A DNA stretch of 60,083 nt, counting the filler, from Porpidia crustulata (lineage: Eukaryota): the NCBI GenBank assembly GCA_964255105.1. It is 9 parts of 9 records of this genome, joined end to end, with 100 filler letters (N's around TTAATTAATTAA, not from the genome) between each part and the next. Parts side by side here need not be neighbours in the genome. Positions count along the whole stretch, not along the records: positions 6,712 to 13,318 come from CAXUWE010001501.1; 8 more parts are not named here. One strand, given 5' to 3'. Position numbers and translations under genes: made by a program. Below, piece by piece: positions 3,001 through 53,513 of the stretch; the first letter of the stretch is position 1, and each line of letters starts with the position of its first letter. The notes under the pieces were generated by a model that worked only from the letters and a program-made list of their open reading frames with translations, did not search any database and was not told the DNA's origin.

Positions 3001-3019
3001 CATCACCGTTACATTCCAT
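1..3019 (-). CDS. NMA111: Nma111/Ynm3 HtrA-family serine protease with PDZ-like domains (3' end cut by window edge)
   Basis: Catalytic triad motifs TNRHVV, PVHDFG and [11 protein letters not shown]. Intron 2563-2611 (GTATGT...TAG). The frame stays open to the C-terminal [15 protein letters not shown] near position 50. In-frame ATGs at 3019, 3037 and 3187. Confidence 0.95.
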
Positions 3020-3857
3020 ATTGTGGAAGGTTGACATGATCCTGGATCTTGCTCCTAGCTGGCTCGATAAAGCTGTGGAAAAGAAGCTTCTTTTATAGGT
3101 AAAGGAGCAATGTTCTGTGAGTAATTGTGTGCGCAAGCTTATGACTCTCTTGGCTGCTTCTCTGCCGCTGACACACACGATTTGCATTCAGACTGACATT
3201 GAATTCGCGGTGAAGCTGTACACATTTCAGCTGTTCCTTCCCTCGAGCTTCGACACACGCTAGGCTACCTGCCGCCCGTTCAGGGCAGGGATACGTTAGG
3301 TAAGCAGCCCCTTATGACTCGGGTACCAATCATTGGTGAGCCTTGGATTTGCAGGGACTCGTACCTAAAGTGATATATCAACAATAAATGGGCCTTAACT
3401 ATCCATTGCAAAGATTACGAATGACTTATCGTATTGACCCTCTTCAATAATATTACTATCTATGTACTTGGAGAGGGGTGAGTCCGTGAAAGGAGCCGCA
3501 GATGTCATACCATGTAATATGACTTTGCCTCCTTGGATGCTGTACTCGATATCCACCCCGTGCAAAAGACCAAAGCCTGCTGAGTAGAAGAGAGCACAGT
3601 ACCCATATGTCTTGTGTCTCAAGTCAATACCCCACTTGATCTTCCGACTCCTCGCTATCCAAACGATTCTTCCAATGGAAGCAAAAGAAAAAACCCACTT
3701 CATAATGCCCTTAACGCAGTAATGCTGCAGGCGTTTCTTGCCGTGTGCTGTGTCTCCAATCGGGTATCACGAGAAAACAGTAACATACGCCTTTTCTCAT
3801 CTAAAAGGGGAAATCGAGCTCGGATCACCTCCTTCTAACCACTTCACACCTTGATAC

Positions 3858-6611
3858 TCACGCCAATATATTCTTTTTGCCTGAAATCCTCTCTCTCATC
3901 TCACCAAGTCCCTGCATACACTCCTTGTGTCTTCCCCAGCTAACGTCCCAGTGTTCCCTGACTCTAAAATCCTCTTCCACTCCCCGCATGTATTTCTTAT
4001 ACCCCCAATTCTCATTACCCTCACCAACAGCACTCATCCAATCCGGTTTAAACGTCGCTTCGATGCTCGTCTGGCGCTCGTTGAAATGTTGCAGCATCTT
4101 CGTGTTATACATGTTCCACTCAAACATGTAGGCGCGCATCTGAGCGAGGTAGCGCTCCCAGGATGTCTGCGTGAGGTTGGTAGGGACAGGTATTGATTTA
4201 GGCGGCGAAGGGAGAATGAGGGGTTGAGGGGTATGGATATTAAATGGATTGAGGGACGGACGGGATTCAAACGGTAGAGTTGTGGTAAGATCGTCAAGGT
4301 CACCAAGTCCGGATTGAGAGGGAGCGAAAGGTGCGACGTTTTTGAGGTCGCCGAGATTGAGATGAAATGGGTCTGCTTCGGTGCGCGTATTTCCATTGGA
4401 ACGTGGTGGTAATGCAGGGCCAGGGGGCCGCGGCGTTACGTCTGTCTGTGTACCCTCTCCTGGCATCTCTTCGCCTTTGGTCTTGGGCTGCTCAGCCGAG
4501 GGAGGCGTTAGTATTGGATCGATATCCATGGCACTTCCGCCACCGCTTGTTTTGCTGCTACTGATACTTGCGTTACTTTGTGCTTCGGCTTCCTCTCCAG
4601 AATCGTCAAGTGTTGCCGATATGCTTACAGCTTTAGGTGCTGTAGACCGTTTGTTGGTGATCTTTGAAGGTTTCCGTGCGGCTATTGGGCGTTTTCGACT
4701 CGTTCGAGTTGGGGATCCTGTGGGCGGGGGTGGAAGGAAGTCCCAACTTGTAGGCTTGAGGTGTTGAGCCCATTCGTCTTGGGAGCTTTGTCCTTGCTCT
4801 GCTCCTACGGCAGGGTCAGCCCGTTCTGGCGCAGACGACGAAGACGCGGTATCATTCGCAAATTGTGGCATCCTCTCGCTCCTTTCGCTGCCGATCGGAG
4901 CTTGCTGTCGCGGTTGCTGTCTTCTGACGGGCGATGTTCGCCCCCGCGGAACATTACCTCGATTCGGCGGTGGGGGCACGAAGTAGTCATTAGCGTTCCC
5001 CGTAAACTTACCATTCCAGTCGGATGGGGAGAAGTTCACATTGATGGTGTCCGAGCTATGACTTCTCAGTGGCGGTGCCCTAGGGGATACTTTGTGTCCG
5101 TCGTTCCTAGGTATTTTGAAACTACTGTGCAGTACGGTATCAGCAAAGTTCTGCATCTTGGATTCACCGCGTCTCGACAAATGAAAAGCATCATAAGGGG
5201 CGTCCTGGGCCTCTTGCTGCTTTCGGGGAGCTAAGCTTGAAGGTATAGCCCAATACGGGGGAAGAACAGACGAAGTTCTCGGCTGCTTGGGGGACTTGAA
5301 AGGCCATTGATCGGACCATTTCCGAGACAGAGATGAACTAGTAGGAGATTGGGAATACCCAGAAAAATCATACATTGGGGGCTTTGGCGCTTGATCGCCT
5401 GTCTCGCAGGTAGGGTCGTTTTCCTTGTCCTCATTTTCATTCACCGATGAAGATTTCTCGTACCAGCTTTGGGATTTCTGTACCGGACGCTGAGGGCGCC
5501 TAGAATGGTCTGGTACGGGAGAGGTACTATTGAGAGAGGACTGTTGTTGGCTGTGATCTAAGTCTCTGTTTGCTCGATGTGAATTGAAGCCTTCCGGATA
5601 ACCCGAAGTAGTTTTAAAGGATGACTCGTCCGCGTTCTGTTTGGCTGTCTCCAGGGGAACAGCGTCATCATCATCAACTTGAATAGATGGTCTAGAGCTG
5701 GGACGGATGGGCCCTCCAAAGGTATTTTGAGTCCGAGCATGAGGCGGCCCGCGAGGCTGCCTGATCGGGGCGTATGGTCTCTTTCCTCTATCAGCAACGC
5801 TTTCATCGGATGAGGAAGAAGACTCGGAGGAAAAAGAGGCTGCTGGGGGTACGGAAGTCCTCGTCTTTGGACTTGCACTATGGTGCTGCCTGCTCGACGT
5901 AGCCGATGCGGCCCGGTGATGAGGGCCGTCCGGATCGCTCTCGTACCACGGGCCATGCTCTTTACTTTCGCGAGTGCTCGCGGATCTCCCAAGTCCTGTA
6001 CTAGAAAAATATGTCTTCTCGCCGCCTGCGGTAGCGTAAGGTGTACTCACGCGATTGCTGTTTGAGAGCGGATCGTCGAATCTAGTTTGTGACTTAAATG
6101 CGCGTAACGGATCGGGTTTCGTAGGGGACGTTCCAGGTGCTGCATGAGCTGGCGCATAGGCAGTACGGGACCTTGGCGGAGGCTGATCGCCTCTGGAGAC
6201 ATTGGAGTACGCCGATTTGTATCTCATTGACGACTCGTCTAGGCTAGGGTCGAGCCCTGGCCTTGGTCTCATTGTACTCGGGAAGCGGGCGCGAGCTTCA
6301 TGATATTGGTCCCAGCCAGATCGTTTTGGTGGTGCATCACTAGGTAAGCCACTCGTACTTGGAGGACTAGGCTGATACGTGGATGTTCTCGGGCTTTTGG
6401 GGGGCATATGTCTTCCCTGGGGCGGTTGTCCAGTTCCATGCCTCATCTGATCCCACGCCTTAAACGCATTCACCTTTGCCCTTGCAGCATCTATATCGCT
6501 GTCTGTATTCACTGGTGCGGGTTTCGAGTCCCTCGTGTATCGATGAGCCCCAGAAGGAGGAGGTGGAAAGTTGGTCTTGGACGCCGGAGGAGGTGGTGGC
6601 CGGGGTGGAGG
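3858..6611 (-). CDS. Large Pro/Ser-rich protein, probably the C-terminal part of a Pezizomycotina DnaJ-domain protein (5' end missing at contig edge)
   Basis: ORF of more than 900 codons open to the contig end. The C-terminal block WERYLAQMRAYMFEW..MLQHF..R..YKKYMRGVEEDFRVREHWDVSW resembles that of fungal J-domain proteins as I recall them; the J domain itself is not in the contig. Confidence 0.65.
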   Translation of the reverse strand, partial: PPPRPPPPPASKTNFPPPPSGAHRYTRDSKPAPVNTDSDIDAARAKVNAFKAWDQMRHGTGQPPQGRHMPPKSPRTSTYQPSPPSTSGLPSDAPPKRSGWDQYHEARARFPSTMRPRPGLDPSLDESSMRYKSAYSNVSRGDQPPPRSRTAYAPAHAAPGTSPTKPDPLRAFKSQTRFDDPLSNSNRVSTPYATAGGEKTYFSSTGLGRSASTRESKEHGPWYESDPDGPHHRAASATSSRQHHSASPKTRTSVPPAASFSSESSSSSDESVADRGKRPYAPIRQPRGPPHARTQNTFGGPIRPSSRPSIQVDDDDAVPLETAKQNADESSFKTTSGYPEGFNSHRANRDLDHSQQQSSLNSTSPVPDHSRRPQRPVQKSQSWYEKSSSVNENEDKENDPTCETGDQAPKPPMYDFSGYSQSPTSSSLSRKWSDQWPFKSPKQPRTSSVLPPYWAIPSSLAPRKQQEAQDAPYDAFHLSRRGESKMQNFADTVLHSSFKIPRNDGHKVSPRAPPLRSHSSDTINVNFSPSDWNGKFTGNANDYFVPPPPNRGNVPRGRTSPVRRQQPRQQAPIGSERSERMPQFANDTASSSSAPERADPAVGAEQGQSSQDEWAQHLKPTSWDFLPPPPTGSPTRTSRKRPIAARKPSKITNKRSTAPKAVSISATLDDSGEEAEAQSNASISSSKTSGGGSAMDIDPILTPPSAEQPKTKGEEMPGEGTQTDVTPRPPGPALPPRSNGNTRTEADPFHLNLGDLKNVAPFAPSQSGLGDLDDLTTTLPFESRPSLNPFNIHTPQPLILPSPPKSIPVPTNLTQTSWERYLAQMRAYMFEWNMYNTKMLQHFNERQTSIEATFKPDWMSAVGEGNENWGYKKYMRGVEEDFRVREHWDVSWGRHKECMQGLGEMRERISGKKNILA

Positions 6612-6711
6612 NNNNNNNNNNNNNNNNNNNNNNNNNNNNNNNNNNNNNNNNNNNNTTAATTAATTAANNNNNNNNNNNNNNNNNNNNNNNNNNNNNNNNN
6701 NNNNNNNNNNN
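6612..6711. other. Artificial contig spacer (44 N + TTAATTAATTAA six-frame stop linker + 44 N); identical spacers at 13319-13418, 20017-20116, 26708-26807, 33387-33486, 40065-40164, 46741-46840, 53414-53513
   Basis: Identical 100-nt structure eight times; the intervening segments decrease monotonically in length (6611 to 6570 nt), as expected for size-sorted concatenated contigs. Confidence 0.99.
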
Positions 6712-7104
6712 CCCGAAAACCATCCTCATCGCTCCCCCGTCGCGCGCCGCAAGCATGCCGTATCGTTTGCACAGTTTTTCCCCCCAACCCGCGCACGACG
6801 GTTTTGGAAGTAAAAACAGAAGCAGAAGCGAAAGAAAGAAGAGTGGACAAGCGCGATGGCAGCTCGGCGGGTTTGGCTCGATATGCTTCTGTCACCTGCA
6901 CAAGTCGTCCTGATGCCTTTTGTTTTTGATATAAGGATTGCTGCTGCGAGGGAGCGGGACTGAAACGGGGGGATTCGGCTGTGGTGGATGGGAATGGCAT
7001 CAGTTTTGCATGGTGTGGATGCGGCGGCGATGGAGCAATGAGGATTTCCGAGGGCTTGGGCGTGGATGTGTTCTGGATGATGAGACCCCTTTCCAACCCT
7101 ACAC

Positions 7105-8694
7105 CTATACCTTCGCGATCCCCCACCCCACCTGCACCGCCCTCGCCATCACGAACAGCGCCGTCCCGGCAAACATCGAAACGCCGCAAAAACCCTGCAG
7201 ATACGTGTACCGCCCCTCATCCCGCGTGACCAGCGCCCCAGCGATTGGGTTCCCGAGCAAGCCCGCGATAGAGATAATCAGAAAATTGGTGCCAAGGCGG
7301 ACGCCGATGCGGCGGATGTCGGAGATCTGGGCGATGAGCGCGGGCACGAGGGAGACGAAGGCGCCGGAGGAGAAGCCGTAGAGGGCGGCGAAGAGGATGA
7401 TGGGGATGGCGCCGCGGGAGGGGAGCCAGAGGGCAAGGACGATAACGCTCGAAAAGGCGGTGGTGAGGATCATGATGTTGAAGCGGCCGATGTGATCGCC
7501 GGCCCAGCCGGGGAGAATGCGGCCGAAGATGCTGGGGGGAGGCAGGATTAGTCTTGGGGCAGATATATGGGGCTGGGAGGGAGAGTGGGAGGGGTGGTTT
7601 ACCTGGTTGCATTGAGGATGGCTATGAGGTAGTTGGCTAGTCATGCGGACATGCCTTCGGCTTGAGCTTGGAGGGTGATGAAGTTGAAGGGGAGGAAGGT
7701 GCCAAAGAAGAGGAAGCTTGCTAGGGCGGTGAGGAGGAATGGGACTTCCTTGAGGGGTCTGATAAATTCCATTACGACAAAGGGGCTAGGGCGAGGCTCA
7801 AGACGAGATTTGACGGTCAGGTTGGCGATGATCATGAGGCCAAGGATCATGAAGGCGGCGGTCCGCATGGTCCAGGCGAAGCCGATTTGGGGGATGAGGC
7901 GATCAATCATTATGCTGAGGCTGGTCAGTGCATGCGGTTTAGAACGAGAAATGGATCGAGCTAAAGGCTTACGGCATAATGACTCCTCCCAACGACGACC
8001 CAGAGGACACTATCCCAAAGACCAGTGCCCTCCTCCTGAAGAACCATGTTGCAATCGAGTTATTCGCCGCATAGAATATCGCACTCGCACCCAGGGCGCT
8101 ACACAGCCCCTGTGCCAGTAGGAACTGGTAGTATTGATGCGATAACGAGACCATCATCAACCCAAAGACATGGAAGAATGTGCCTCCCAGCAACAAGTAT
8201 CTCGGCCCATAACTATCAAATGCCTTGCCCAAAAACGTGCCTCCGAAGAACATTGTAAAGATCTCCAACGAAGGAATCCAAGCAACTGTGCTAGGCGGGT
8301 ATTCTTTGAGCTGATGCGTCTGATAGTAGGCCTGAAATATGCCGACGCAGTTGATCTAGCCGAAGCTGCAGAAGAGGCAGCACCACCCCCCCAGCGCGAC
8401 GGTCCATGCTTCTATACCTCCATCAGGGAAATCTGCAGGATTCACGCCTCCAGCGACAGGGCCGCCTTTGTTCTCGGATTGGGCTTCAGCCTCGATATCG
8501 GCATTGGCGATGCCTTGGGATTCGGGGAAGATGTTGGCTTCGGTGTTGTGGTGTTCTGGATCAGCCGAGTGTCTCAAGGAGGCACTGCGTGACAGAGATG
8601 TTGAATTGCGATTGGACGTCTTGTCGGCGACATTTTCAGTGCTCCTGTTCTCTGCAACTGTCGAGGTATTGGAGGAACCGACGTTAGAGACCAT
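7105..8694 (-). pseudogene. MFS monocarboxylate transporter (Mch/MCT family) with two in-frame stops
   Basis: Motifs [51 protein letters not shown] and IGVRLG. TAG at 8356-8358 replaces the conserved Trp (FCSFG*INCVGIFQ). TGA at 7641-7643 (GMSA*LANYL). Introns near 7914-7972 and 7534-7602. Confidence 0.85.
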
Positions 8695-9335
8695 CGATAA
8701 GGCTTGTTCGGACGACAATGAATTTTCCTTGGGTGATAGCCTCTCATGGGTCTTGTGGAGTATTTGAACAATATACAACGGTTATAAGGAGTCATCTTTA
8801 AGACGTCCACTGTTGTCAGAAATCGGATCCAACGGCAATTGAGACGGAAAGTGAGATGCCATTAGTAAGGCTGTGACTAACTTGATATGCAATAGGCTGT
8901 CAACTTAGTCCGGCCCGCCTGCCCGCCTTCGGCGATTTCTTAGCCATTTGTTAGGTCGGCATGAAGGTACTTTCATCACTGCTGTAAGCTGACCGTTGAC
9001 GGCTTCCGGCCTAGAATTGCTAATGCTTGTCATTGATGAAATCTCGCGAGACTCCAAGACATGCCCGCTGGAAGAGCAATGACGAGTTGTACGAGACGTA
9101 GCATGTGAAAATGATGGTGGATAGCAGGTTTTGCGCTCCAATCAACGCCTCTTTTTATGGCTGAGGACTTTATCTGCGGATCTTAGGGGTGTGTTCATGG
9201 AGCATATTTAGAGAGTAGAATAATGAAGGAAATGCTAATAGATCGACTTGACGATAATTCTATTTGCTCTTGGGACAATACTATCGTCTTTGTAAACTAC
9301 TGTGCCCCCACCGGACCGACCAAAAAACAGCAGTG

Positions 9336-10292
9336 TCACTTTTTCATGCCCATACCCTTCATCATCTCAATCATCATCCGGAAATACTTCTGCCTCGCCG
9401 GCTCGATCGCCCCGTACCACTTCTTCGCCGGTCCCACCACCACCTCCTCATCTCCGGCCACGAGGCCCTTCCAAGCCTCCTCGGTGAACATGTCAAGCGG
9501 CATGCCAATTGCGCTACCTCCTTTCAGATCAGGCTGGTGCTTCTCATCGTGCAGCTCGGCTGAGATACGTTAGTGGGGGAGTAGCCTTTGACGCTGAGGG
9601 GGAAGGGACGTTACTCTGCACAGCCGGCGGAGACAGCTCAATTACTTTGACGCTGGAACCGTGGAGTTGCTCGCGGAGGCACATGATCCAGGAGTGGAGG
9701 GCGGCTTTGCTGGCGCTGTAGTTGCCGACGCGTACCAAAGGAATAAGCGCGAGGCCGGATGTCGTGCTGTGGAATCGAATGTCAGTTGATTCTTGCCGTT
9801 ATGCTGAAAGGGCATAGGTACTAGATCAGAGCAGATTGTTCTTTCTTGCTTTGTAGGAAGGGCAAGAAAGCTTTGGTTAGAGCAAGATTGCTGAGATAGT
9901 TGGCCGTGAACTCCATCTGGACGGCCGAGAGATCAACGGTCTCTGGCTTCGCGAAATTCAAGCTTCATTGAATACCAGCGTTGAGCAGCACGCAGTCGAG
10001 GTCCGGATGATCCTTGATGACGCTGGATAGATAGATCAGTCGCATCCTGCAAATAGCCAACGTAGTCAACCGACCTCTCGGCAAAGCCGGGAATCTTCTC
10101 GAGCTCTAGGACGTCAAAGGGCACGGCACTGGCACTATCCTTGCCATATTTGTCCACGAAAGCGTCAAGTCTCTCCTTTCTTCTGCCAACGACAATAACG
10201 CGGGACTTTTCTTGAACCAATCGTGCAGCTAGGGCTTCTCCAATCCCACTGGTAGCACCTATGACGAGAACTTTCTTGTATGGGAAAGACAT
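9336..10292 (-). pseudogene. Short-chain dehydrogenase/reductase (DltE-like) with an in-frame TGA
   Basis: N-terminal KKVLVIGATSGIG, YSASKAALH active site, VIELSPPAVQ/TELHD. After intron 1 the frame reads LLNAGIQ*SLNFAKPETVDL, with TGA at 9965-9967 where the family has Arg (GIQR). Confidence 0.8.
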
Positions 10293-11151
10293 GACGATAG
10301 TAGAGTTGACAAAGATTATTAACTTACACTTCAAGATATTTTTTGATAATTGTCTTGAGAAGTACGAAGCCCAGCGCTACTTATATGAACCAGTATCGAG
10401 CAAAGCGAATTCGGCTTTAGCGGAATTAAGATAACTCATGATCTTTGACCGTCAGAAAATAGTAAGGAAGGTCAGCAATTCATGCAAGATATCTGCAAGG
10501 CACGGCAGAACAAGACAGTTGATAGTATCATTGGTGCCAGGAAAAGACTAAAACAAAAGCAGATATTGCCAGGGCCGTGCCAACAATCTTGCGGATGGCT
10601 TTGCGTCGCGCTGAAATATGTGCAAGTTGATAGGACTAGGTATGAAGACCAGATACAAAGACATGGAACAAAATCTCGCATCTACGTAGATCCATTTCAC
10701 TATACTCTGACCGGACGCCTAAGAATATAGCTAGGCCAGGAGGTCTACGCGATCCCACTCTAACCTCTATGTTAATCCAAGTTGAGAGGGAATATAGACT
10801 GTATCGGATTAAGAAGACTGCGCTGACGTCGTGGTGTATGCTTACTGGAACACTATTGCACACGATGACCATAGCGGCGTAGATCTACGTGAAGCCGTCA
10901 AGAAATGAGGCTGAAAGCTTCTCTATGCATTTCATGGTTTCCCGTTCATCATTGACCCTAATTAGAAAGCAAGTTATCGCCCTTACTGATCTCATGGCAG
11001 ATGACGCGGGCGTTTTGCGTATAGGACTCCTGGTGACGATCAAGTATTTAGGTGTATATTACTATGCGAAAAGGCGACAGACTGGCTCTCAGTAGCGAAT
11101 CAAAAACCATGCGGGTTTTGCTGCTAACATTAGAAGCGGAATATATTATTT

Positions 11152-12925
11152 TTACGACCAAGATATGCTAATGCGATTTTCAGCGTATTCTGATTAGACC
11201 GGACATGGCAGAAACTTACGCTAGCATGATACCAGCCCCAAGAGCCATTGCAGCGAACTGCATCAGTGTTTTCCTCAACTCTTTGCTCTTATTTGGTCCG
11301 GTTTCGAGAAGCTCGGGGATCACGGCCACGGTACCGACATACAGAAACGTCCCAGCTGTAAAGGGCAGAAGCATGTCACCCCAGCCCAGGCCTGTTCCTG
11401 CAAGCCCTGCATCTCCTACTCCACTATTGGCATCATGAGGCGATGTCTTGCCTAGCTTCTGGACAGCGATCCCCAAGCACGTGCCTAAAAAGGCCCCCAG
11501 AGCGGTGACGAATTGGGATGACATAGCAGCTTTCTTCGAGAAGCCGGATTGTATCAGCAAAGCGAAATCACCAACCTCGTGGGGAATCTCGTGGAAAAAG
11601 ACAGCGACGGTAGTTGTTGCACCAAGAGTTGGGGAGGCGTAGAACGATGAGGAGAGCGCGAGCCCGTCAGTAATGTTATGCGTAAAGTCAGCTATAAGAT
11701 TCAAGTAGGCTGAAAGTCGGATCGATTGGGACGCTTCTTTGCCCCTTCCTTGTACCCCGGATTTTTCCAGTCCTTTGTCGGATTCCCATTCTTGTAAGTC
11801 CATAGCTGCTCCACGCGGTCGAACGCCTTTGACAGTGAAATTCTTGTCCGATCCCTCAGTGTCTGGATAGAATTGCGGCTCGGCATCTGGAAATACGACA
11901 CTAACAAGTTTGATCAAATCCGGTGCTGCCAGGAGTGTATTAGGCTGCGTCCTATATTCATTCAAACAGGCTTCATAAGCCCGATAGAGCGCCATCTGCG
12001 TTATCTCGCTGTTCTGATCTTCTTCGAATACAGCTCGGAGCCAAATACTCGAACGCTGCGATTCATCGAAGTTTTGGAATTTGACAAGCAGATCATTGTC
12101 AATGCTAGGAACGTTCGAAGCTAAATTGACTAAGCCTTGCAAGGGAACGGGCTTCCGGTTCTTGAGTTCACTCGCTGTGATTGCTGCATCCGTACCACTT
12201 GCCTTTACAGTGGTATCCTTGCCGCTTTTGCCAACTTCATTTTCATGCGAATGCCCATGGTCGTGACCCCCACCCCCACCAGTCGCTATCCTAAGGCCCT
12301 TATCCATTGCCACAAAAGTCAAAAAGCCTATCATGATAGCCACGCCCAAGAGAAGATTCTTATTTGGTTGAACCAGGATAAAACGAGCGTGATCTGGAGC
12401 GTCTTCGCCAAGAAATATCTCCGGCAGGAGGTGAAAGAGAGTGTCTCCTAGTAAGCCACCAACGGCGAAAGCGACCATGATGGAAAGAGAGGATGGGTCA
12501 ATGTTGGGGGGACACAGAGCTAGGAGGAAATCTGATCATGTTAATTTCAGTGAAAAATGGGGACTCTAGCTCAATCGGTACTGACTAGGAGGGCCCGAAA
12601 TATATAAAGTGGCTAGAAGGGCATTGACAGCTGGACTGCCAGGGAAGAGTACTGCAAAAATCCTCGATGTCAGGCCGGAACTATGTGGATTTGTATCGAT
12701 CTTATGTCGATTGAGGTCTTTGACGATTGAGCATTGCTTGTGACGATCAATCAGTACGGAGTAATTCGAACAGCGTTCAGGAACACGTACCTGAAGGGCG
12801 TCCTCTATTTCATGAGCGTTCATCTGAGCGATCCCACTCTGTGATTTGGCAGCCACCTGGTGCACGAGACCAGTCAACGCTGCGAGAAAGCATAGCCATG
12901 TCCATATGCGTGATACCGCCATCAT
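11152..12925 (-). CDS. YKE4: ZIP-family zinc transporter (Yke4/ZIP7/KE4-like) carrying an extra ~110-aa insert in the TM3-TM4 loop
   Basis: Signal peptide; AFAVGGLLGDTLFHLLP, His-rich GHDHGHSH, LNLIADFTHNITDG, FFHEIPHEVGDF and FTAGTFLYV. Introns 12737-12790, 12532-12585 and 11168-11219. Ends ISWS-TAA at 11152. Confidence 0.93.
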
Positions 12926-13174
12926 CCAAGGATGCTGCTCTGCACCATCAAAATGGGTCGACGTGACACGTGATCGTTATATCGTCGGAGGTCGACAGGC
13001 ACGACTGGTACCTGACTGGGCTGAGAAGTGTTGCCCTAAAGACGGGAGCTAACTTCAAGCCTCCCGCCCTCCATGCAATCAGCACAGAAAATTACACCCC
13101 ACCTTCGTGTCATTCCACAATCGCTCCAAGCAAGTCATCCAACAGCAGCAGTAGTAGCAGCAGCAGCAAAAACT
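12926..13174. promoter_or_regulatory. Short bidirectional promoter between the ZIP gene and NOP16, with an ACGTGACACGTGA E-box-like element
   Basis: Divergent ATGs ~250 nt apart. CACGTGA at 12967-12973 matches the bHLH (Cbf1-type) consensus. Confidence 0.45.
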
Positions 13175-13318
13175 ATGGGCCGCGTCCTCCAAAAGAAAAA
13201 GAACAGATCCTCCATCCCCAAAGCCACGCAAAAGCCCAAATCCAAACGCCTCAACATCAAAAGTAACCCCATTGTCGCCGCAAACTGGTACATTCCCCTC
13301 TTTCCCCCCTCATTCCCC
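13175..13318 (+). CDS. NOP16: Nucleolar protein Nop16, first exon (truncated by contig end)
   Basis: MGRVLQKKKNRSSIPK...NPIVAANW followed by a GT donor; typical fungal Nop16 N-terminus. Confidence 0.85.
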
Positions 13319-16087
13319 NNNNNNNNNNNNNNNNNNNNNNNNNNNNNNNNNNNNNNNNNNNNTTAATTAATTAANNNNNNNNNNNNNNNNNNNNNNNNNN
13401 NNNNNNNNNNNNNNNNNNAGGGGTTTATGATTGCGGCTGAGATGCCCAGTCACTGATTGTGGGTGGTGGGTAATAGGTGGCAGGTGGTACTCTAGCGTTC
13501 TACGAGTATCTCCAACTTGACAGGTCCACCCACCTCATTCAGCCGTACTCTACCCGTTTTGGTGGCGGCTCAGCATGCAGCCTGCTCCTATGATATCTCG
13601 CACCCCTTGTGCTGTCTCGACATCGGCCGGCTAGGTGGACAGCGATCAACAGACCTTCATGTTACGTTCAATCAGAACATATTCGTGATCAGGATGCGAA
13701 GGAGCTGCATCACATCTAAGAACCTACAGACTTTGTGCAGACTCTGAACAAACTAGATCGAGAATGTAAATCTAAGCATTCTGCTTTTCTCGAATCATTT
13801 TTTACCAAATGAAGCGGGATGCCTCAATCCTTAAATAATAATGAGTAATCAGTCGTTAACTCTGACAAGAATACGTTGTGTATCAGCGTTAATCTTCGTC
13901 GTGTTCGTCGTATCGATGAAATGAAGTTAAGTATGAAATTGCTCTGATTGAGTGACGTAAACTGTAAAATGCGAGTGAAATCGTCGTTTTAAATCATGAT
14001 GCTTTCATGCGACGTACGTGCAATTCTTAGAGATGAGTGTTCAGTCAGAAAGCAGTCTGTAACATATAATGATGTGAGTTCAAGATCTTTAAATGCTGCA
14101 AGTATCTTGTGCTGACGAAATTAAATGATATTCCATTCATCATCAAGTCATGTCTCAAGACGTGTAATATCACAGTCGTGAGATTAGTCACGCATGTGAT
14201 CTTCAAGGCTTTGATCGTCACTTGAAAAAAGGCAAGATAAAGTCCGTTGAACCGCGTGTAGGAAAATCCTGACTCAAGATATATCGCGTTGTAATTGAGA
14301 TATATGAGGAAGGAGAAGACAGCGCAGAGGGCAATATGAATGGCGCAGCGACTCAAAGCAATTCATCTGCTGCGTCGTAGAACAGGCTTTGACAGTCCAG
14401 CCGCTGTCCACGAGCGAAGAAATATACTGAGGACTTCGAAGCCTAACGCTCGAAGCAGATACTTTGCCTAAGCAAACGAGGCGAGACGTCGCTTAGACAG
14501 CATGAGTTCAGAGAGTGATCCAGAGCGGCGATACTTTCCAGATGTAAGGAAAGAATTGAAGTCATTTTCAAGCTGCGGAGACAAGTCAACTGTGACATCT
14601 GCAGATAAGGCTGCGGTTTGGACAGCGAACAGGCTGAATGTGGCAATGCGGAAGTCGACATGATGGGGAGGAAATGATCAAGATATGCTGAAGCAAGGCG
14701 GTGATGCACGGGATCATCAAAAAATCTCAGTAGGCTGCAGATTGTATTTCTCGGTGTGTGCTGGCAGACTGTTTCCGTAATGCGCCGTGAGATCGTGGCA
14801 AGGCTGAAAGGAATTCTAACAAGGCACACCTAATGAGGTATGCAAACAAGGCGCCCAAGTTTCCTTGATTGCAGCAATTCCCATGAAATATTCACACGGT
14901 GATTGTCATGACTCATACTCGTAAGGGCGAACTGCAAAGCATTTCGTGTAATTTGCGTACGTTTAGGAACAGGATCAACCAGATAGGAACGCTGAAAGGT
15001 GCCAACGGACGGTCGTTGCCGAGAGACTCGCCCTACCTTCATGATCCTTTGCAATTCGATATCGGGATGAAGGAAAGTTTTTTCGCAAGCGAAACCTATC
15101 AAATTCCCCGAATCCAGACCACCTATTTCTCGTGGCTCAAAACCCGCACCGTGCACATAGTTCCTTTATTACCCTGGGGATCCAAGAGTCTGCATAATTA
15201 TGACAATTTTGAGAGGTCCACCGGATTGGTGACACTGTACAGCAAGCATCCCTGCTCAATGTCGAGGCAAAGTACGCTGTCCTACAGACATGGGCGAATT
15301 CTCAACACAATCTCATCCTCCCATCGACGAGTGATAGTCGGTTGTCCTTGTTGATTCAAGACATCCCATATTCATGTCACAGCTGAAATGACGAAAGTGT
15401 TAGTCGATCATCAGAGACCCCAATAATCCCCCAAGTCGCCAGCATAAGTTCGTGCAACGCGAGTATGGTTGGATCAGACTTTCGCGCGGTAGGATGCGGG
15501 AGACAGCGCGGCTGACGTCGGAATCTGCTGCACCTGCGCACTGCCTGTTTATCAAATGGACGCTCAGGATTACGCAACGGGCAGGCCTGGATCTGAAGGC
15601 AATTGAAAGGCAACTGAAAGGTAACTTGAACGCATTTTGACCAATACAGTTGCCTCTACCATCGCCATCAACTCTGAGCAAGTTTGCATACTCTGATGCA
15701 CGGCCATATGCAGTGTCGGAACCATGCCTCATCACAGAGCCTCCAACGGGGAGTTCTCGTATCTTTCCATACGCTTAGCCTAGCATAGATACCTGTGTTA
15801 TCTCTCACTTCAAGTCCCCGATCTTTCGTGCATCGGATATGAGCAAGTATTGTCGTAAAAACCTTTCCTTCCTAAATGTTTCTGGAGACTTTGGTATCCT
15901 TTAAGACTACCAGAGGATATTGTTCTGCTACATTTGAAGATAATATCGTAAATCTATGACATCCCTAAGCTACAGCCTTGTCTCCACGCCGCCGGCCGCC
16001 ATTTTCAAGTCTGCTTACTGAACCAGTGGCTTTAAAGATTGGCCACCTCTATCTCATTCGAAGGTCTCCATCCTACAAAACCCTAAC

Positions 16088-19607: not shown

Positions 19608-20147
19608 TGCGTCTTGTGGACTATATAAAACTTGCCCTGGGACTACACAGTAGTAGAAGAGGTACCGGTCACATCACGATATGAAACAGATATCGAAGGT
19701 TATTGTCGGAAAAACGACTAGACCCTCTGCCAACGACCTCTCATAAGTTTGAGGTTGATTGATATATCGGAGGGGCAGATAGCAGTTCACCGTTGAATCA
19801 ACATCTATATCGATCTAGCATATGTGACTTGTATTGATGCTGATGATATCTAGAAAGAAGTAATGCGAAAAGATAAAGTCTCTGTCGTCGAGCTAATGTT
19901 AACGCTAAGGTAGTCTTATCAAGTATTAAATTAGGAAATCACGAACCGTCCACCCCCTTTGCATACTCGTATCACTCCCCCCCCCTCGTATGAGGTTTAG
20001 TATTACTCAAATGAAGNNNNNNNNNNNNNNNNNNNNNNNNNNNNNNNNNNNNNNNNNNNNTTAATTAATTAANNNNNNNNNNNNNNNNNNNNNNNNNNNN
20101 NNNNNNNNNNNNNNNNCGCACACCACACACCCAACCACCCTACCACC

Positions 20148-26391: not shown

Positions 26392-27272
26392 GGTTTCAAC
26401 ATGAATTATGTCGATGATTGTTTACCTACACTTGACTCCAAGTCAGGCGATCTAGAGCAACCTTGATGGTGCTCCCTTGATGCCGAACGAATATGACGTG
26501 GGGGATTTCAGTCCCCTCAGGTCAAGTACCGACCCCTCTCCTCCTACGCTTACTTTTGTGGGCTCCATACGCAGAAGGTCCCCGAATCGCACGAATCCAG
26601 CGCATAAAGTCAGGATTACTGAGAAGTAAGTGCTTCAATCGGCGTATGATTATTTAGGTGCTTGATGATTACACCGCGTATTCGGAGTACTGTAAGATGA
26701 TCTGACGNNNNNNNNNNNNNNNNNNNNNNNNNNNNNNNNNNNNNNNNNNNNTTAATTAATTAANNNNNNNNNNNNNNNNNNNNNNNNNNNNNNNNNNNNN
26801 NNNNNNNATACTTACCCGCAGCTGCAGTGATTTCGGGCGATCAACCCCCTGCTTATAGGTTATTATTTTCATCGAAATGCATGAACACGGCGGATTTTTA
26901 ACTAAGAGTACATACAACTACATAACTATTGACTGATTGCGGAACGTGAACTAAACTAAACTAAACAAGAAAAATCAATGCAGATGCAGATGCATTCATT
27001 TAGTACGAATGACGGAAATGGGCAATTATTATTGTACATATTTGATTGCCGATCCAAAGCTAGCTCTCCTATAAACAATTTTCGAAGCTTTGAATGATGG
27101 GGTTTTGAGAAAGTAGGGGATTATTGACAGGGGGCGGACTGTACAGTGTGGTTGGGCCACGAAAAAACATTGGAGGCTGCGTTTTTGTTTTCCGTTGGGC
27201 GTTCTTGATTTCTGTTCAAACGGATGGGTTTGCTCGTTATCATTCGGGCGATGGATGTATGCAGGCTTTAGG

Positions 27273-33386: not shown

Positions 33387-34397
33387 NNNNNNNNNNNNNN
33401 NNNNNNNNNNNNNNNNNNNNNNNNNNNNNNTTAATTAATTAANNNNNNNNNNNNNNNNNNNNNNNNNNNNNNNNNNNNNNNNNNNNTCCCTGCGCACGGA
33501 TGATACCAAGCTAGCAAGCTAGCTTTAAGCCCTAACAATATGTATCAGAATGAAGAATATATATATATATTAAAAAGGGGTGTACACGTATCCAGACTCT
33601 TCTCTTTGCTTAAAGTACCAAGCGTTATAGGGCTGAGGCTGAGTCAAAAGAATAGTTTGTTGATTGTATGATGCGGCCGTAGTTCAATATGCAACGATCA
33701 AAGGAGGAAGTCTAGAAGTAGAGTGTGATCTTTGAGCACGAGAAGATGTGTGAAGGAGCATTAGCTTAGCTGCTGTGATGTTAGTACAGTCCTAATTTTT
33801 AGAACTTACCTTTATTAGTTAATCTAAATTATTCTTGCTAGTAATTTTGCCTTACTTCTCTGTCCTAGAGCTTGATTCAGAGTTAAACTGGTTTTTCTAA
33901 TTTTCACTCATCTATGCATCGATATGAATGCATCGATATAGTTAAGAGGTAGGAGTACTGCAGGGCTGCAGGAGACCCCTCCTGGCGCCCGCTCCCCATC
34001 AGGGCTACACTTGAATTCGTCATTGTTTGGTACCATGGGGGAGGACAACTGGGATAAGAGGACGGCCTACCAAGAGTCCCCATTAATTGAGGGCAAAGGT
34101 TTGTGCATCAGCAACCAGAGCAGACCGAGGTGAAAACTGTGATTGGTCATAATCCAGGAGCGATAAGACTACTGGCTGACCAAGCAGGACTGCTGGAATA
34201 GGTATTGCTTTGCTTCTCTGTAGCTTAGTGGCGTAATGGGGAAAGTAGCGTTCCTTTCTCAAGCATTATGGCGTAAGGACAGGAACTCGAGCGGGTTCAA
34301 GACACGCATTTGCCTCCAATATCTATACTAATGCTGGATCCTGAACTACGAACATGCTATGCACGAAATACGATAGGTCTCACTGATGATAGCAGAA

Positions 34398-39816: not shown

Positions 39817-41535
39817 GAGGTTGAAAGTAGGTTAAGTGGATGAATGATTGACTTGCTCTGCAGCGCAGCTTTGCAATCTACCGGATTTTCCAGCATGAGA
39901 GGCGGTTATCCATTACTACACATGGCTGTTTTGTGTGCGAAGCCCTGGAGCCGATGTTGGGATATGCTGTGGACATACCTTATCCTTTTTACTGGACCAG
40001 AGACAGCAGCTGAGTCTGACGAATGAAAGTCACAGATCTTGATAGCTGGCGCTGGGGGAGGGGGNNNNNNNNNNNNNNNNNNNNNNNNNNNNNNNNNNNN
40101 NNNNNNNNTTAATTAATTAANNNNNNNNNNNNNNNNNNNNNNNNNNNNNNNNNNNNNNNNNNNNTGTGGGGGGGTTTTGCGTTGGGGTGGCGGTCCTTAT
40201 TTGTGGGTGGGGGGCGGCCCGTAATTTTGAGGGGGCGGTGGCCCGTAACCCTGCTGTGGTGGATACCCTCCGTGAGATTGTCCTGGGAAAAAAGACATTT
40301 TGGGGCTTTCAGGTAAGACCTCGGGAGGCCTCTGAAGCCAGTTGGTGACCCTGACTTCAGTCCGACTTCAATTAGCGGTAAAGGAGTACTTGTGTCAGTG
40401 CAACAATGGACTCGGATATCGAATCCGCCTTGGCACCTTCCAGCGCGCTCCGCTTTTTGATTCCCTGGTCTCTACAGAGAGGTGAACTTCTCTCGGTGGT
40501 AAGAAGGAATTAGCTCAGTATTGTGAGTAGCGAACCCGGTTGAAGAGACTTGATCCGGAATTTGTGTATTCGGTATTAGATACCCTAATGCCGTATGAGC
40601 GTATCAAGTAGTGTATGTATCGTAAGATTGATCAACTCCCCACTGATTGGCTATCTAAGCGCGATTACCTATGCTCTTGATCCTCACGTGTTTAAAACAC
40701 ACATTGCTCAAATCCACGAGGCAGCTGAAGCTCTTCGGGTGCTGAACTCCCAGCATCAGATACATCAGCAGCCGCAACTCGAACATCTATCTGGTCCGGC
40801 TTCTGTTACCCTTGCGGAGTTGAATCCTATAAACTCAATGACAAAAGTCACAGCAGAAGCATTCTCCAAACGCGACAATTGTAAGCGCACAGTCATTTTG
40901 TAGTAGACTTTCATTGGCAACGAACCACATCTGTGCGTTTCAATTGTGCGGAGGATTCGTTCGCCTGGAAACCTTCCCGGCGGGAGAAAAGCAAACCACT
41001 ACACCATTATACCAGCGCCATTAGGAATCGAACCTAATCTGATTATAACTAAACAGCTCACGCAGGGCATCTATGAGGTTCTTGTACTACTATTTTTACT
41101 GTTTCTATTACAGCAGTTTCCACGCTCGCATTTCCCTTTTCACGGTGGGAAACTGGTTCTCTAAAACATGGTAATTAGTCCGTGATTGCCGAATAACCAT
41201 TACCATGGTTCCTGATCAGAGGCCCACTGCTTGTACGGTCTACCTTGGTGTCTGCTTCGTCTCATAGGGTTGCTCATAGTGTTTGAGTTCGGATTTCAAC
41301 TTTGATAGACCCAACACCAAATCCTGCTGATGCAGCAATGTAGGTAGTGTTGCCGTACCTTATGTGACTCATTACTGTGTCTCGGAACTGACTCGATGAT
41401 TTATTGCATTCATATCTCCTTCCTTTCTTCATTCTTGACTTGTACAAACATATATAACCCAGCTGCGGGCTTCATCTCTAATTGATCAACTCTCAATATT
41501 TGTGAACAAAGTTCTTTCTGCACTTGTGAGCCAAA

Positions 41536-46740: not shown

Positions 46741-47496
46741 NNNNNNNNNNNNNNNNNNNNNNNNNNNNNNNNNNNNNNNNNNNNTTAATTAATTAANNNN
46801 NNNNNNNNNNNNNNNNNNNNNNNNNNNNNNNNNNNNNNNNCCGCTAAGGTTAGCGCTAAGCCCCTTTGGGAAGTTGGGGAAGCGGGATCGTAACAGTAAT
46901 AGTTTTTTAATTTATTTCATTAATAGTTAAATTATAATTTATCTATTAATTAAATAGTAGTAAATTAAGATTGAAAAAACATTTTATTTAAAAAGATCGA
47001 AAATTAAATTCGATTTAAGCGTCATGATTCGAGCGCTCGAGTCACTTGTCTTTAAGTCACGTGAGTCTCGATCCGTGCGTCATCTCTTGATGCGCCGAGC
47101 CCTCCCGCGCTAGGGTCCTATAAGGGGGCTTGTGCTACGACCACCCCTAGGGGTATTGGTTTACCCGGGTGAGGAAGCTAGGTGGGGTGGGCGCAATCCA
47201 CATGAGGGGCGCAATACCCAACTGCACCACCTAAAAGGCGAAATACCAAGTTGGAAGACTTGGTCCAATACTATTAGATATGGTGGGTATGGCCGTAACA
47301 GCTTGGGAGGTCTGATCGTGACAGTTCTTTCGATTCTTTAATAAATTAATGAATTAGTCATCTTCCGCATCTGAAAGAATATAAATTTCGACTAATGCCC
47401 GAACATCCTAATGACTGCTTCATCATTAGCTTAAAGGGAATATACGATTGAAAATTACTCTTTTGCACGAGACCTAACATTCTCGGAAGGCTTAGA

Positions 47497-52569: not shown

Positions 52570-53513
52570 GCTCTACGCAGGAATATTTTCGCCTACTCCT
52601 GGTATCACGTTTGCTCTAGAAATCCACAAATGGGGATTCTGCGCGTTCTTTCCCAACGCGATTGTGGGTTTGTTAGTAGAGAATGCCAAGGTAGTGAGGA
52701 ATCCCAGGTTTGCTGAAGGGGCGAGCTTGCTTGACTGGTATGACTCTCAGAGATCGTGAGAGGGGCCTCCAGTCTGATGCTCAATGATACTAGCCATGTT
52801 CGGCCATTGTCGCTAGTCTCTATGTCCTTAAATGGGTGACCTAGGATGAGCCGCTTCATACAGTATCGTATGCAGATGTGTATGTAAATATCGTGTAAGT
52901 TTTGAGACTCGAATGGAACGAGCCGTGAGGGTCGATTGGTAGCCTCGGTACCTCAGACATGTATCTGACGTAGCTGCGCCATATACAGGATTCCTTCAAC
53001 TATCAGTATCTTACCTTATGCTTCCGAGTCTAAAGTCATGTAAATTACGAGATATACATTATTAACGACGTGTAAAAGTCCGAATCACAACAAAGATATG
53101 CCAGCTTTATTTTTTGCGCGTGGACTTTTCTCTTTAAATCTATATCGATTTAATTACGGGAACTACTGATCGTACACCCCCCCATATGAAGGATTAGTGT
53201 TAGGGTTATAAACCTTCTCATTATCAAATCGCTTCTTCATCATCTGCTTGAAAATTATCGAGCAATTGCACCCTGTTCTAAATCGATCAAGAAATGCCCC
53301 TTTCAAAATTGAAATGTCGTTCAAAGACCTACTACAGTCCGTCTAGAAGGTGTAATTGCCTCCTCTTGATCCTCGCGCCACTGCCCGCTTCCCACTTTCA
53401 CTCCCCCCTCCCTNNNNNNNNNNNNNNNNNNNNNNNNNNNNNNNNNNNNNNNNNNNNTTAATTAATTAANNNNNNNNNNNNNNNNNNNNNNNNNNNNNNN
53501 NNNNNNNNNNNNN

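Follow-up and report, generated by a model that had tools for sequence, protein, structure and literature searches.

An Rsc9-type RFX winged-helix domain within the TM3-TM4 loop of a Yke4/ZIP7-type zinc transporter of Porpidia crustulata and other Lecanoromycetes

Introduction

How does a winged-helix domain of the kind found in a chromatin remodeller come to lie inside a zinc transporter, and what might it do there? The question is raised by a gene for a Yke4/ZIP7-type zinc transporter of four exons (11152-12925, minus strand; about 537 amino acids (aa) predicted) in the stretch of DNA analysed here, a window of 60,083 nucleotides from the fungus Porpidia crustulata (assembly GCA_964255105.1). 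An earlier note on this DNA had described an extra, in-frame and stop-free segment at 11789-12121, in the loop between transmembrane segments 3 and 4 (TM3-TM4), and had read it as an RFX-type winged helix of the sort carried by Rsc9, a subunit of the RSC remodeller. Transporters of the ZIP7/Yke4 type control zinc release from the endoplasmic reticulum (ER), and their TM3-TM4 loop, which is disordered in the characterised members, is thought to be the site of regulation. This loop faces the cytosol in the ZIP family, or the nucleoplasm for the nuclear-envelope pool; it is a regulatory hub in transporters of the ZIP7 type and a phospho-regulated gate in ZIP7.

Here we describe a known transporter and a known domain in a combination that is undescribed, clade-wide and under selection, in proteins that already stand in public databases.

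An extra segment in the transporter loop

The main open reading frame (ORF) of the gene, on the minus strand at 11216-12478, encodes 420 aa and begins at an internal ATG of exon 3 (12478); residue numbers below refer to it. The Pfam profile Zip (PF02535) covers residues 2-419 with an E-value of 9.9e-53 and 179.9 bits, against a cut-off of 35.1, and places the product in the ZIP family. The LIV-1 subgroup that holds ZIP7 and Yke4 is marked by HExPHExGD in TM5 and HNxxDG in TM4, and both motifs are present here. The Letharia orthologue (63% identity) has 'Zn(2+) transporter YKE4' as its nearest protein-atlas cluster (score 0.80, structure TM-score 0.84), and this cluster, the exon structure and an N-terminus colinear with that of the Letharia orthologue identify the gene as a YKE4 orthologue. 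Judged from these features, the gene product is an ER-type Yke4/ZIP7 zinc transporter, with zinc transport and ER location predicted, and its zinc-transport core looks intact. The segments that bear on the insertion are these:

12242..12271, minus strand: His-rich stretch GGHDHGHSHE, ORF residues 70-79, which starts the TM3-TM4 loop, invariant in 36 of 36 aligned sequences; insert-less orthologues have it too
12152..12169, minus strand: loop motif ELKNRK, ORF residues 104-109, just upstream of the insertion point; common to orthologues with and without the insert
11780..12133, minus strand: inserted segment, ORF residues 116-233 (118 aa, 354 nt); column occupancy 0.00 in 34 insert-less orthologues
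11816..12097, minus strand: folded RFX-type winged-helix core, ORF residues about 128-221, ending in KGVRPR
11663..11680, minus strand: TM4 metal-site motif HNITDG, invariant in 36 of 36 aligned sequences
11567..11593, minus strand: TM5 motif HEIPHEVGD, of the LIV-1/ZIP7-type form HExPHExGD, invariant in 36 of 36 aligned sequences

The insert is in frame and free of stops. When Yke4 orthologues were aligned, as the earlier note had proposed, residues 116-233 were empty in the 34 insert-less ones, so that the segment first described at 11789-12121 was confirmed and lies inside 11780-12133. The motifs on either side of it, ...SELKNRKP upstream and ...KE..SIRLSAYLNLIADFTHN downstream, are kept in the insert-less orthologues, among which the TM3-TM4 loop is otherwise variable and of low complexity. 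In the protein atlas the length given for the usual Ascomycota YKE4 cluster is 412 aa, whereas the Letharia protein has 536 aa. When conserved ZIP peptides were used to scan metagenome contigs, 77 loci were obtained: 22 carry an insert-like domain, and in 45 the orthologous exon runs uninterrupted for 282-302 aa and lacks the domain; the other 10 are partial or contain stops in straight translation, and no domain was detected in them.

Given that the assembly is fragmented, with contigs of about 6.6 kb, we considered whether a piece of RSC9 had been joined to a ZIP gene by chimeric assembly or contamination. Against such a join, 121 proteins of many different sources and 22 loci of other assemblies share this architecture and its position, and identity between the insert and the Rsc9 domains aligned with it is only 44-46%, which argues that the insert is not a recent paste. 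The earlier note had also called for reads across the junctions; a separately built contig from a public run, which may be the assembly's own source and hence not independent, spans 11100-13061 and crosses both insert junctions with zero differences. We regard a chimera as extremely improbable.

Homology and fold of the insert

The insert shows significant homology to the RFX region of Rsc9 and is accordingly an RFX module of the Rsc9/ARID2 type. A phmmer search against all PDB sequences matched it to yeast RSC9 (residues 375-489, E 4.2e-13) and to an RSC9-type chain, 23cp_R (Chaetomium-type, E 9.1e-10), with no significant match beyond these two. With a profile built from 10 rows, ZIP inserts and Rsc9 domains together, the E-values were 5.8e-28 for 23cp_R, 1.4e-25 for yeast Rsc9, 9.6e-4 for RFX5 and 0.064 for the RFX region of ARID2. 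Among 1.84 billion representative proteins the insert had 188 matches at E <=1e-3, the best being Rsc9-like at 45-46% identity, and only one ZIP protein (P0068) stood among the best 150 of the 188 matches listed. The Pfam profile RFX_DNA_binding (PF02257), which the note had singled out, aligned over ORF residues 144-200 (profile positions 5-58 of 79) with an E-value of 2e-5 for the excised piece but at 25.6 bits, under the curated cut-off of 27; the Rsc9-like protein P0012 also falls just short of it, at 26.7.

The protein as a whole is of another kind than its insert. An Rsc9 protein has an armadillo body, with or without an ARID, and a C-terminal zinc finger. This ORF gives signals for ZIP and RFX only, and transporter loop motifs adjoin the insert on both sides; the protein is therefore not an Rsc9. 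One further database protein, P0015 (374 aa), has an Rsc9-like RFX module at residues 107-211 that is 45% identical to the window insert; its N-terminal region is acidic and it lacks the armadillo part. P0015 may be mis-called, or it may stem from a capture of another sort.

AlphaFold2 (AF2) modelled a 131-residue fragment, from a 72-row alignment, with pLDDT 85 and pTM 0.80; the elements of the core run in the order N-terminal helix, H1, beta1, H2, H3, beta2, wing, beta3. Foldseek returned two strong matches only, both at probability 1.00: RFX5 (8zjr_M, E 2.3e-4) and the RFX1 DNA-binding domain (1dp7_P, TM-score 0.82, rmsd 2.2). An exhaustive VIA-align search likewise placed RFX5 at Z 10.4 (rmsd 2.1, 82 of 82 residues) and RFX1 at Z 8.6 (76 of 76), with the next row at Z 6.5 and the remaining rows at 5.0 or below. 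The predicted fold is thus that of an RFX-type winged helix. Neither the Foldseek nor the VIA-align listing held an Rsc9 or ARID2 chain, which is uninformative because the Rsc9 RFX domain is mobile or unmodelled in the papers: the accessible text of two reports on RSC presents it as mobile, putatively DNA-binding and probably within an unmodelled 'tail' (10.1101/800508; PMC6959994), and the accessible portion of another adds nothing further on it (PMC13580576). Sequence, profile and fold searches and the comparison with insert-less orthologues together bear out the Rsc9-type RFX winged-helix reading, and the structural check that the note had proposed gave a confident fold with RFX5 and RFX1 as its closest relatives.

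The AF2 model of the whole exon-3 ORF was poor (pLDDT 51.5, pTM 0.33), probably because TM1 lies in the upstream exons and the alignment had 36 rows only, and we used it solely to contrast domain and linkers: pLDDT was 73-86 in the domain and below 50 in the linkers (to residue 120; 236-250). In these models the insert appears as a folded module on flexible linkers adjoining the retained His-rich stretch. A predicted homodimer of the domain scored 0.01, a value that speaks neither for nor against dimerisation.

Selection on the insert across the clade

A homology search with the insert only found 10 further proteins, 74-83% identical over the insert. Searching with the whole protein gave a list of 120 ZIP proteins; when P0068 is added to these, 121 of 121 proteins examined bear the domain (E <=5.4e-9) at the same site and in frame. 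The four rows that name an organism are all Lecanoromycetes (Alectoria sarmentosa, Letharia lupina, Psora testacea and Lecanora helva), and UniRef has given the Letharia protein the automatic name 'RFX-type winged-helix domain-containing protein'. The fusion is therefore real, and it is clade-wide and not private to P. crustulata. Full-text literature searches found no paper describing a ZIP-RFX or Yke4-Rsc9 fusion, and the note likewise knew of none, yet one database name already flags the RFX domain.

We then compared rates of change in the insert with those in its surroundings. Seven of the metagenome loci (L001-L007) form one species group, 99-100% alike, that matches the window at 77% in DNA and 86% in protein. 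Between the window and one member of this group, L003, the insert core has pN 0.10, pS 0.65 and dN/dS of about 0.07 by the Nei-Gojobori method, compared with 0.007-0.015 in the TM parts and 0.09 in the first linker, all of which are rough values since dS is saturated (>=1.5, infinite in short linkers) and the comparison amounts to one species pair. The dN/dS check thus gave a low ratio, and the excess of silent change in the core is plain despite this roughness. Among the 10 close relatives, identity is 79% in the core, 57-60% in the linkers and 92-96% in the TM parts; against distant ZIP-RFX proteins the figures are 36%, 18-35% and 83-89%. No stop or frameshift interrupts the insert in the 121 proteins or the 22 loci, and E, R, W, Q, Y and G residues that look structural are invariant across 72 ZIP and Rsc9 rows. 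From this pattern of sequence change, it is strongly supported that the insert is translated and kept by purifying selection.

These data bear on two other explanations. One is that a domain-sized fragment is tolerated in a disordered loop as a harmless passenger with no function of its own, which would suit the variable, low-complexity loop of the insert-less orthologues, the fast divergence of the core between deep clades relative to the TM parts, and the presence of one lineage without the domain inside the clade. The low dN/dS of the core, its intact frame in every protein and locus, the invariance of its fold-defining residues and its better conservation than the linkers within the close clade all speak against a passenger, which we consider rather unlikely. 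The other is that splicing takes the segment out of the mRNA, either as one long intron or by alternative skipping, and so leaves an ordinary Yke4. GT and AG dinucleotides do occur in the loop region, but the inferred introns of this gene measure 52-54 nt against 354 nt for the insert, the annotated Letharia, Lecanora and Psora proteins contain and retain the segment, and a coding frame, fold-defining residues and low dN/dS would be unexpected for an intron; removal by splicing is very unlikely.

Origin of the domain

A search with P0012, the best Rsc9-like match, retrieved 118 further proteins, every one of which (118 of 118) retains the RFX-like domain. Named Rsc9 proteins among them come from Letharia columbiana, Alectoria fallacina, Cornicularia normoerica, Lecanora helva, Protoblastenia rupestris and two Xylographa species, and Lecanora helva has both the ZIP fusion and a domain-bearing Rsc9. 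Because the Rsc9-like proteins of the lineage retain their own domain, the ZIP insert is a duplicate and not a relocation.

In a domain tree of 84 sequences, from which five long-branch rows and P0014 were left out, the 23 ZIP inserts make up one side of a branch with a Shimodaira-Hasegawa-like approximate likelihood ratio (SH-aLRT) support of 83, and this branch is nested in a starred group (95) with 18 of the 20 Lecanoromycete-like Rsc9 rows. An earlier tree of 91 rows agreed with this, except that two very long Rsc9 rows joined the ZIP inserts at weak support (80). A transporter tree of 65 rows, built from TM columns only, placed all 29 insert-bearing rows within one starred clade of 33, and the insert-less loci L052, L054, L056 and L057 fall inside this insert-bearing clade. 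The fewest changes on the TM tree are two, one gain and one loss, while monophyly of the insert-bearing rows is not rejected (approximately unbiased test, p 0.10), so that a gain plus a loss and a single gain are both possible. Since the clade of the window lies outside the subclade of named Parmeliaceae, Psoraceae and Lecanoraceae in this tree, the capture is older than that split. On the evidence of these trees, it appears most likely that a common ancestor of P. crustulata and the Lecanorales captured the domain once, from the Rsc9 of its own lineage.

The insert-less loci of this kind (L052, L054, L055, L056 and L057) are Yke4 exons of 300 aa, matched at about 3001-3900 of their contigs (1389-2288 in L057), that share an SIRLSA motif with the insert-bearing clade; GC content is 0.55-0.57 at L052-type loci and 0.42-0.53 at insert-bearing ones. 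L052-type genes may have lost the domain secondarily, or they may be paralogues or belong to a near outgroup. Gene order could not class them as orthologues or paralogues because the ORFs that flank the transporter gene in the window (7644-8781) have counterparts in four loci only (L002, L003, L004 and L007), all from the closest species group.

The window insert is closer to Rsc9 (41-46% identity) than to the other ZIP-clade inserts aligned with it (L008-L015, 30-36%), and it retains a three-residue segment of the H2-H3 loop that those inserts have lost. As judged from these alignments, the window copy is a slower-evolving version, and rates after the capture are very unequal between lineages. 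As to the route, the insert has no flanking introns, and in P0012 the domain occupies residues 320-421 of a long Rsc9 sequence (657 aa); if that sequence is taken as a single uninterrupted reading frame, capture of a DNA or cDNA fragment would fit better than intron-mediated exon shuffling.

Wing, charge and possible role

The residues by which RFX domains contact DNA, and the role of wing W1, we take from the RFX1-DNA structure. The RFX5 wing KARRLGGRGQSKY aligns with SAQVIDGAKKKF of the profile, where the window has EPQFYPDTEGSDKNF, and the insert lacks a basic wing W1. Its net charge in the window is -8, compared with a mean of 0.0 over 121 ZIP inserts and of -0.4 over 127 Rsc9 domains, and the only basic feature conserved in ZIP inserts and Rsc9 is KGxRPR. 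The missing basic wing and the charge of -8 lean against a classical RFX-type DNA-binding reading of this sequence, and the insert is unlikely to be a sequence-specific transcription factor.

These observations also weigh on a possible nuclear-envelope tether, in which transporter molecules would diffuse from the ER to the inner nuclear membrane and the winged helix would bind DNA, chromatin or an RSC-linked partner, so coupling zinc flux to chromatin or anchoring loci. In favour of a tether, the source of the domain is a chromatin remodeller, its fold is that of RFX DNA-binding domains, the basic K-G-x-R-P-R motif is retained, and the loop is small and would face cytosol or nucleoplasm by the general ZIP topology. 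The Rsc9 RFX domain is described, in the accessible text, as mobile and putatively DNA-binding (10.1101/800508; PMC6959994). That binding is only putative there even for Rsc9's own domain, however, and the RFX wing arginines are absent, the window copy is acidic and ZIP inserts average no net charge; a tether is unlikely.

Two narrower proposals were set aside. Release of the domain as a cleavable transcription factor is unlikely, since it lies between TM3 and TM4 and its release would require two cuts. Metal sensing by the domain itself finds no footing in its composition, as the insert has no His and one Cys, and neither residue is among the invariant columns.

Gene structure and contig setting

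The gene model was obtained by comparing the window DNA with the annotated Letharia lupina orthologue P0169 (536 aa), with splice landmarks placed by script, so that the splices are inferred. Its parts are:

12791..12925, minus strand: exon 1; ATG at 12925, 45 codons, signal-peptide-like N-terminus colinear with that of P0169; donor GTACGT from 12790
12737-12790, minus strand: intron 1, 54 nt
12586..12736, minus strand: exon 2, 151 nt; codes for ...QCSIVKDLN...FPGSPAVNALLATLYISGPP, in agreement with '...FPGSPAVNALLATLYISGPPNFLLALCPPNID' of P0169
12532-12585, minus strand: intron 2, 54 nt; donor GTCAGT
11220..12531, minus strand: exon 3, 1312 nt; TM2-TM8 of the ZIP core and the entire TM3-TM4 loop with the insert
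11168-11219, minus strand: intron 3, 52 nt; GTAAGT...TAG
11152..11167, minus strand: terminal mini-exon, 16 nt; predicted C-terminus ...IMLAISWS, where P0169 ends in GAGIMLAISWS

A tblastn search finds the upstream exon conserved in 75 loci. If intron 3 were not spliced, the protein would end in ...IMLA at the stop at 11216-11218. ORF-based gene calls, such as the 420-aa database proteins, miss the terminal mini-exon and both upstream exons.

The window joins nine contigs of 6611 down to 6570 bases, ordered by decreasing size and separated by spacers composed of N44, TTAATTAATTAA and N44, which place a stop in all six frames. Genes on the two sides of a spacer belong to joined contigs and are hence not genomic neighbours, so that the true context of the ZIP gene is 6712-13318 only.

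6612-6711, 13319-13418, 20017-20116, 26708-26807, 33387-33486, 40065-40164, 46741-46840, 53414-53513: spacers
6712..13318, no strand assigned: contig of the ZIP gene, 6607 bases

The same contig carries fragments of an MFS/sugar-type transporter gene (about 7108-8355, minus strand; MFS_1, E 1.7e-13) and a short-chain dehydrogenase (9936-10376, minus strand; adh_short, E 8.7e-11).

Discussion

Taking the evidence together, we consider it reasonably probable that the gene encodes a Yke4/ZIP7 transporter with a captured Rsc9 winged helix that serves as a docking or regulatory module. The duplicated Rsc9 winged helix has landed between the loop motifs ELKxRK and (E)KE..S(I/V)(R/K)L, and there is strong support that it is translated there, folds by itself on disordered linkers and is held by purifying selection. 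There it may act as a cytosol-facing module that binds a protein, and possibly nucleic acid without sequence specificity, and thereby tunes the activity, stability or location of the transporter. As the loop is a regulatory hub, the basic wing is missing and the copy is neutral to acidic, a docking or regulatory module would be the most likely role; for the cytosolic docking or regulatory part, drawn from position and composition only, our confidence is tentative.

Several observations pull the other way and set limits to this explanation. Since the query used to rank the 121 relatives contained the insert, their list favours insert-bearing proteins. Constraint on the domain is much looser than on the transporter core, its dN/dS is a rough figure, and the exon status of the insert is argued from its evolution. 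The insert-less rows inside the insert-bearing clade suggest that the domain may be dispensable. In addition, the Rsc9 RFX domain is called putatively DNA-binding in the accessible text of one report (10.1101/800508), which would make nucleic-acid binding by the insert possible as well.

A folded remodeller domain in a regulatory loop, held under selection across a fungal group, offers a natural handle on how that loop controls a ZIP transporter, and it is a clean, datable case in which a membrane-protein loop has taken up a domain with no introns at its flanks. In metagenomes the ZIP-RFX fusion may be of use as a marker of lichen-mycobiont lineages. Metal homeostasis would be linked to chromatin in an unforeseen manner if the domain has kept the ability to bind nucleic acid or RSC partners. 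A bolder idea, that lichen fungi evolved an ER or nuclear-envelope zinc channel physically coupled to chromatin or RSC-associated factors through the captured domain, strikes us as a long shot; were it true, zinc release at the nuclear envelope would be directly linked to chromatin state or gene position, for which there is no described counterpart.

Among known systems, the inner-nuclear-membrane LEM/HeH proteins such as Heh2/Src1 are alike by analogy only, in that a small fold of nucleic-acid-binding type is tethered to an ER or nuclear-envelope membrane protein; they differ in that there is no homology and that the module here sits in an internal loop of a polytopic transporter and its DNA binding is doubtful. 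The RFX1 and RFX5 DNA-binding domains (1dp7, 8zjr) are the best structural matches, with weak profile homology, but identity is about 20%, and in the insert neutral or acidic residues take the place of the wing that in RFX5 is rich in arginine and glycine. Yke4 of Saccharomyces cerevisiae and ZIP7 (SLC39A7), of the LIV-1 subfamily, share the ZIP domain, HNxxDG, HExPHExGD, the His-rich TM3-TM4 loop and the signal-peptide-like N-terminus, whereas usual fungal orthologues have about 70 low-complexity residues in the loop in place of the folded, 118-residue extra domain seen here. Closest to the insert is Rsc9 of RSC (ARID2/BAF200 in PBAF), with homology over the whole domain, including the helix before the Pfam RFX core, the shared motifs (D/E)EPxRSxxWL, EED, TQ, AY and KGxRPR, and a net charge that is likewise near neutral. 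Unlike Rsc9, from which the ARID, the armadillo repeats and the C2H2 finger were not copied, the ZIP copy consists of the winged helix only, and it lies within a membrane-protein loop, where it has evolved faster and on long stem branches.

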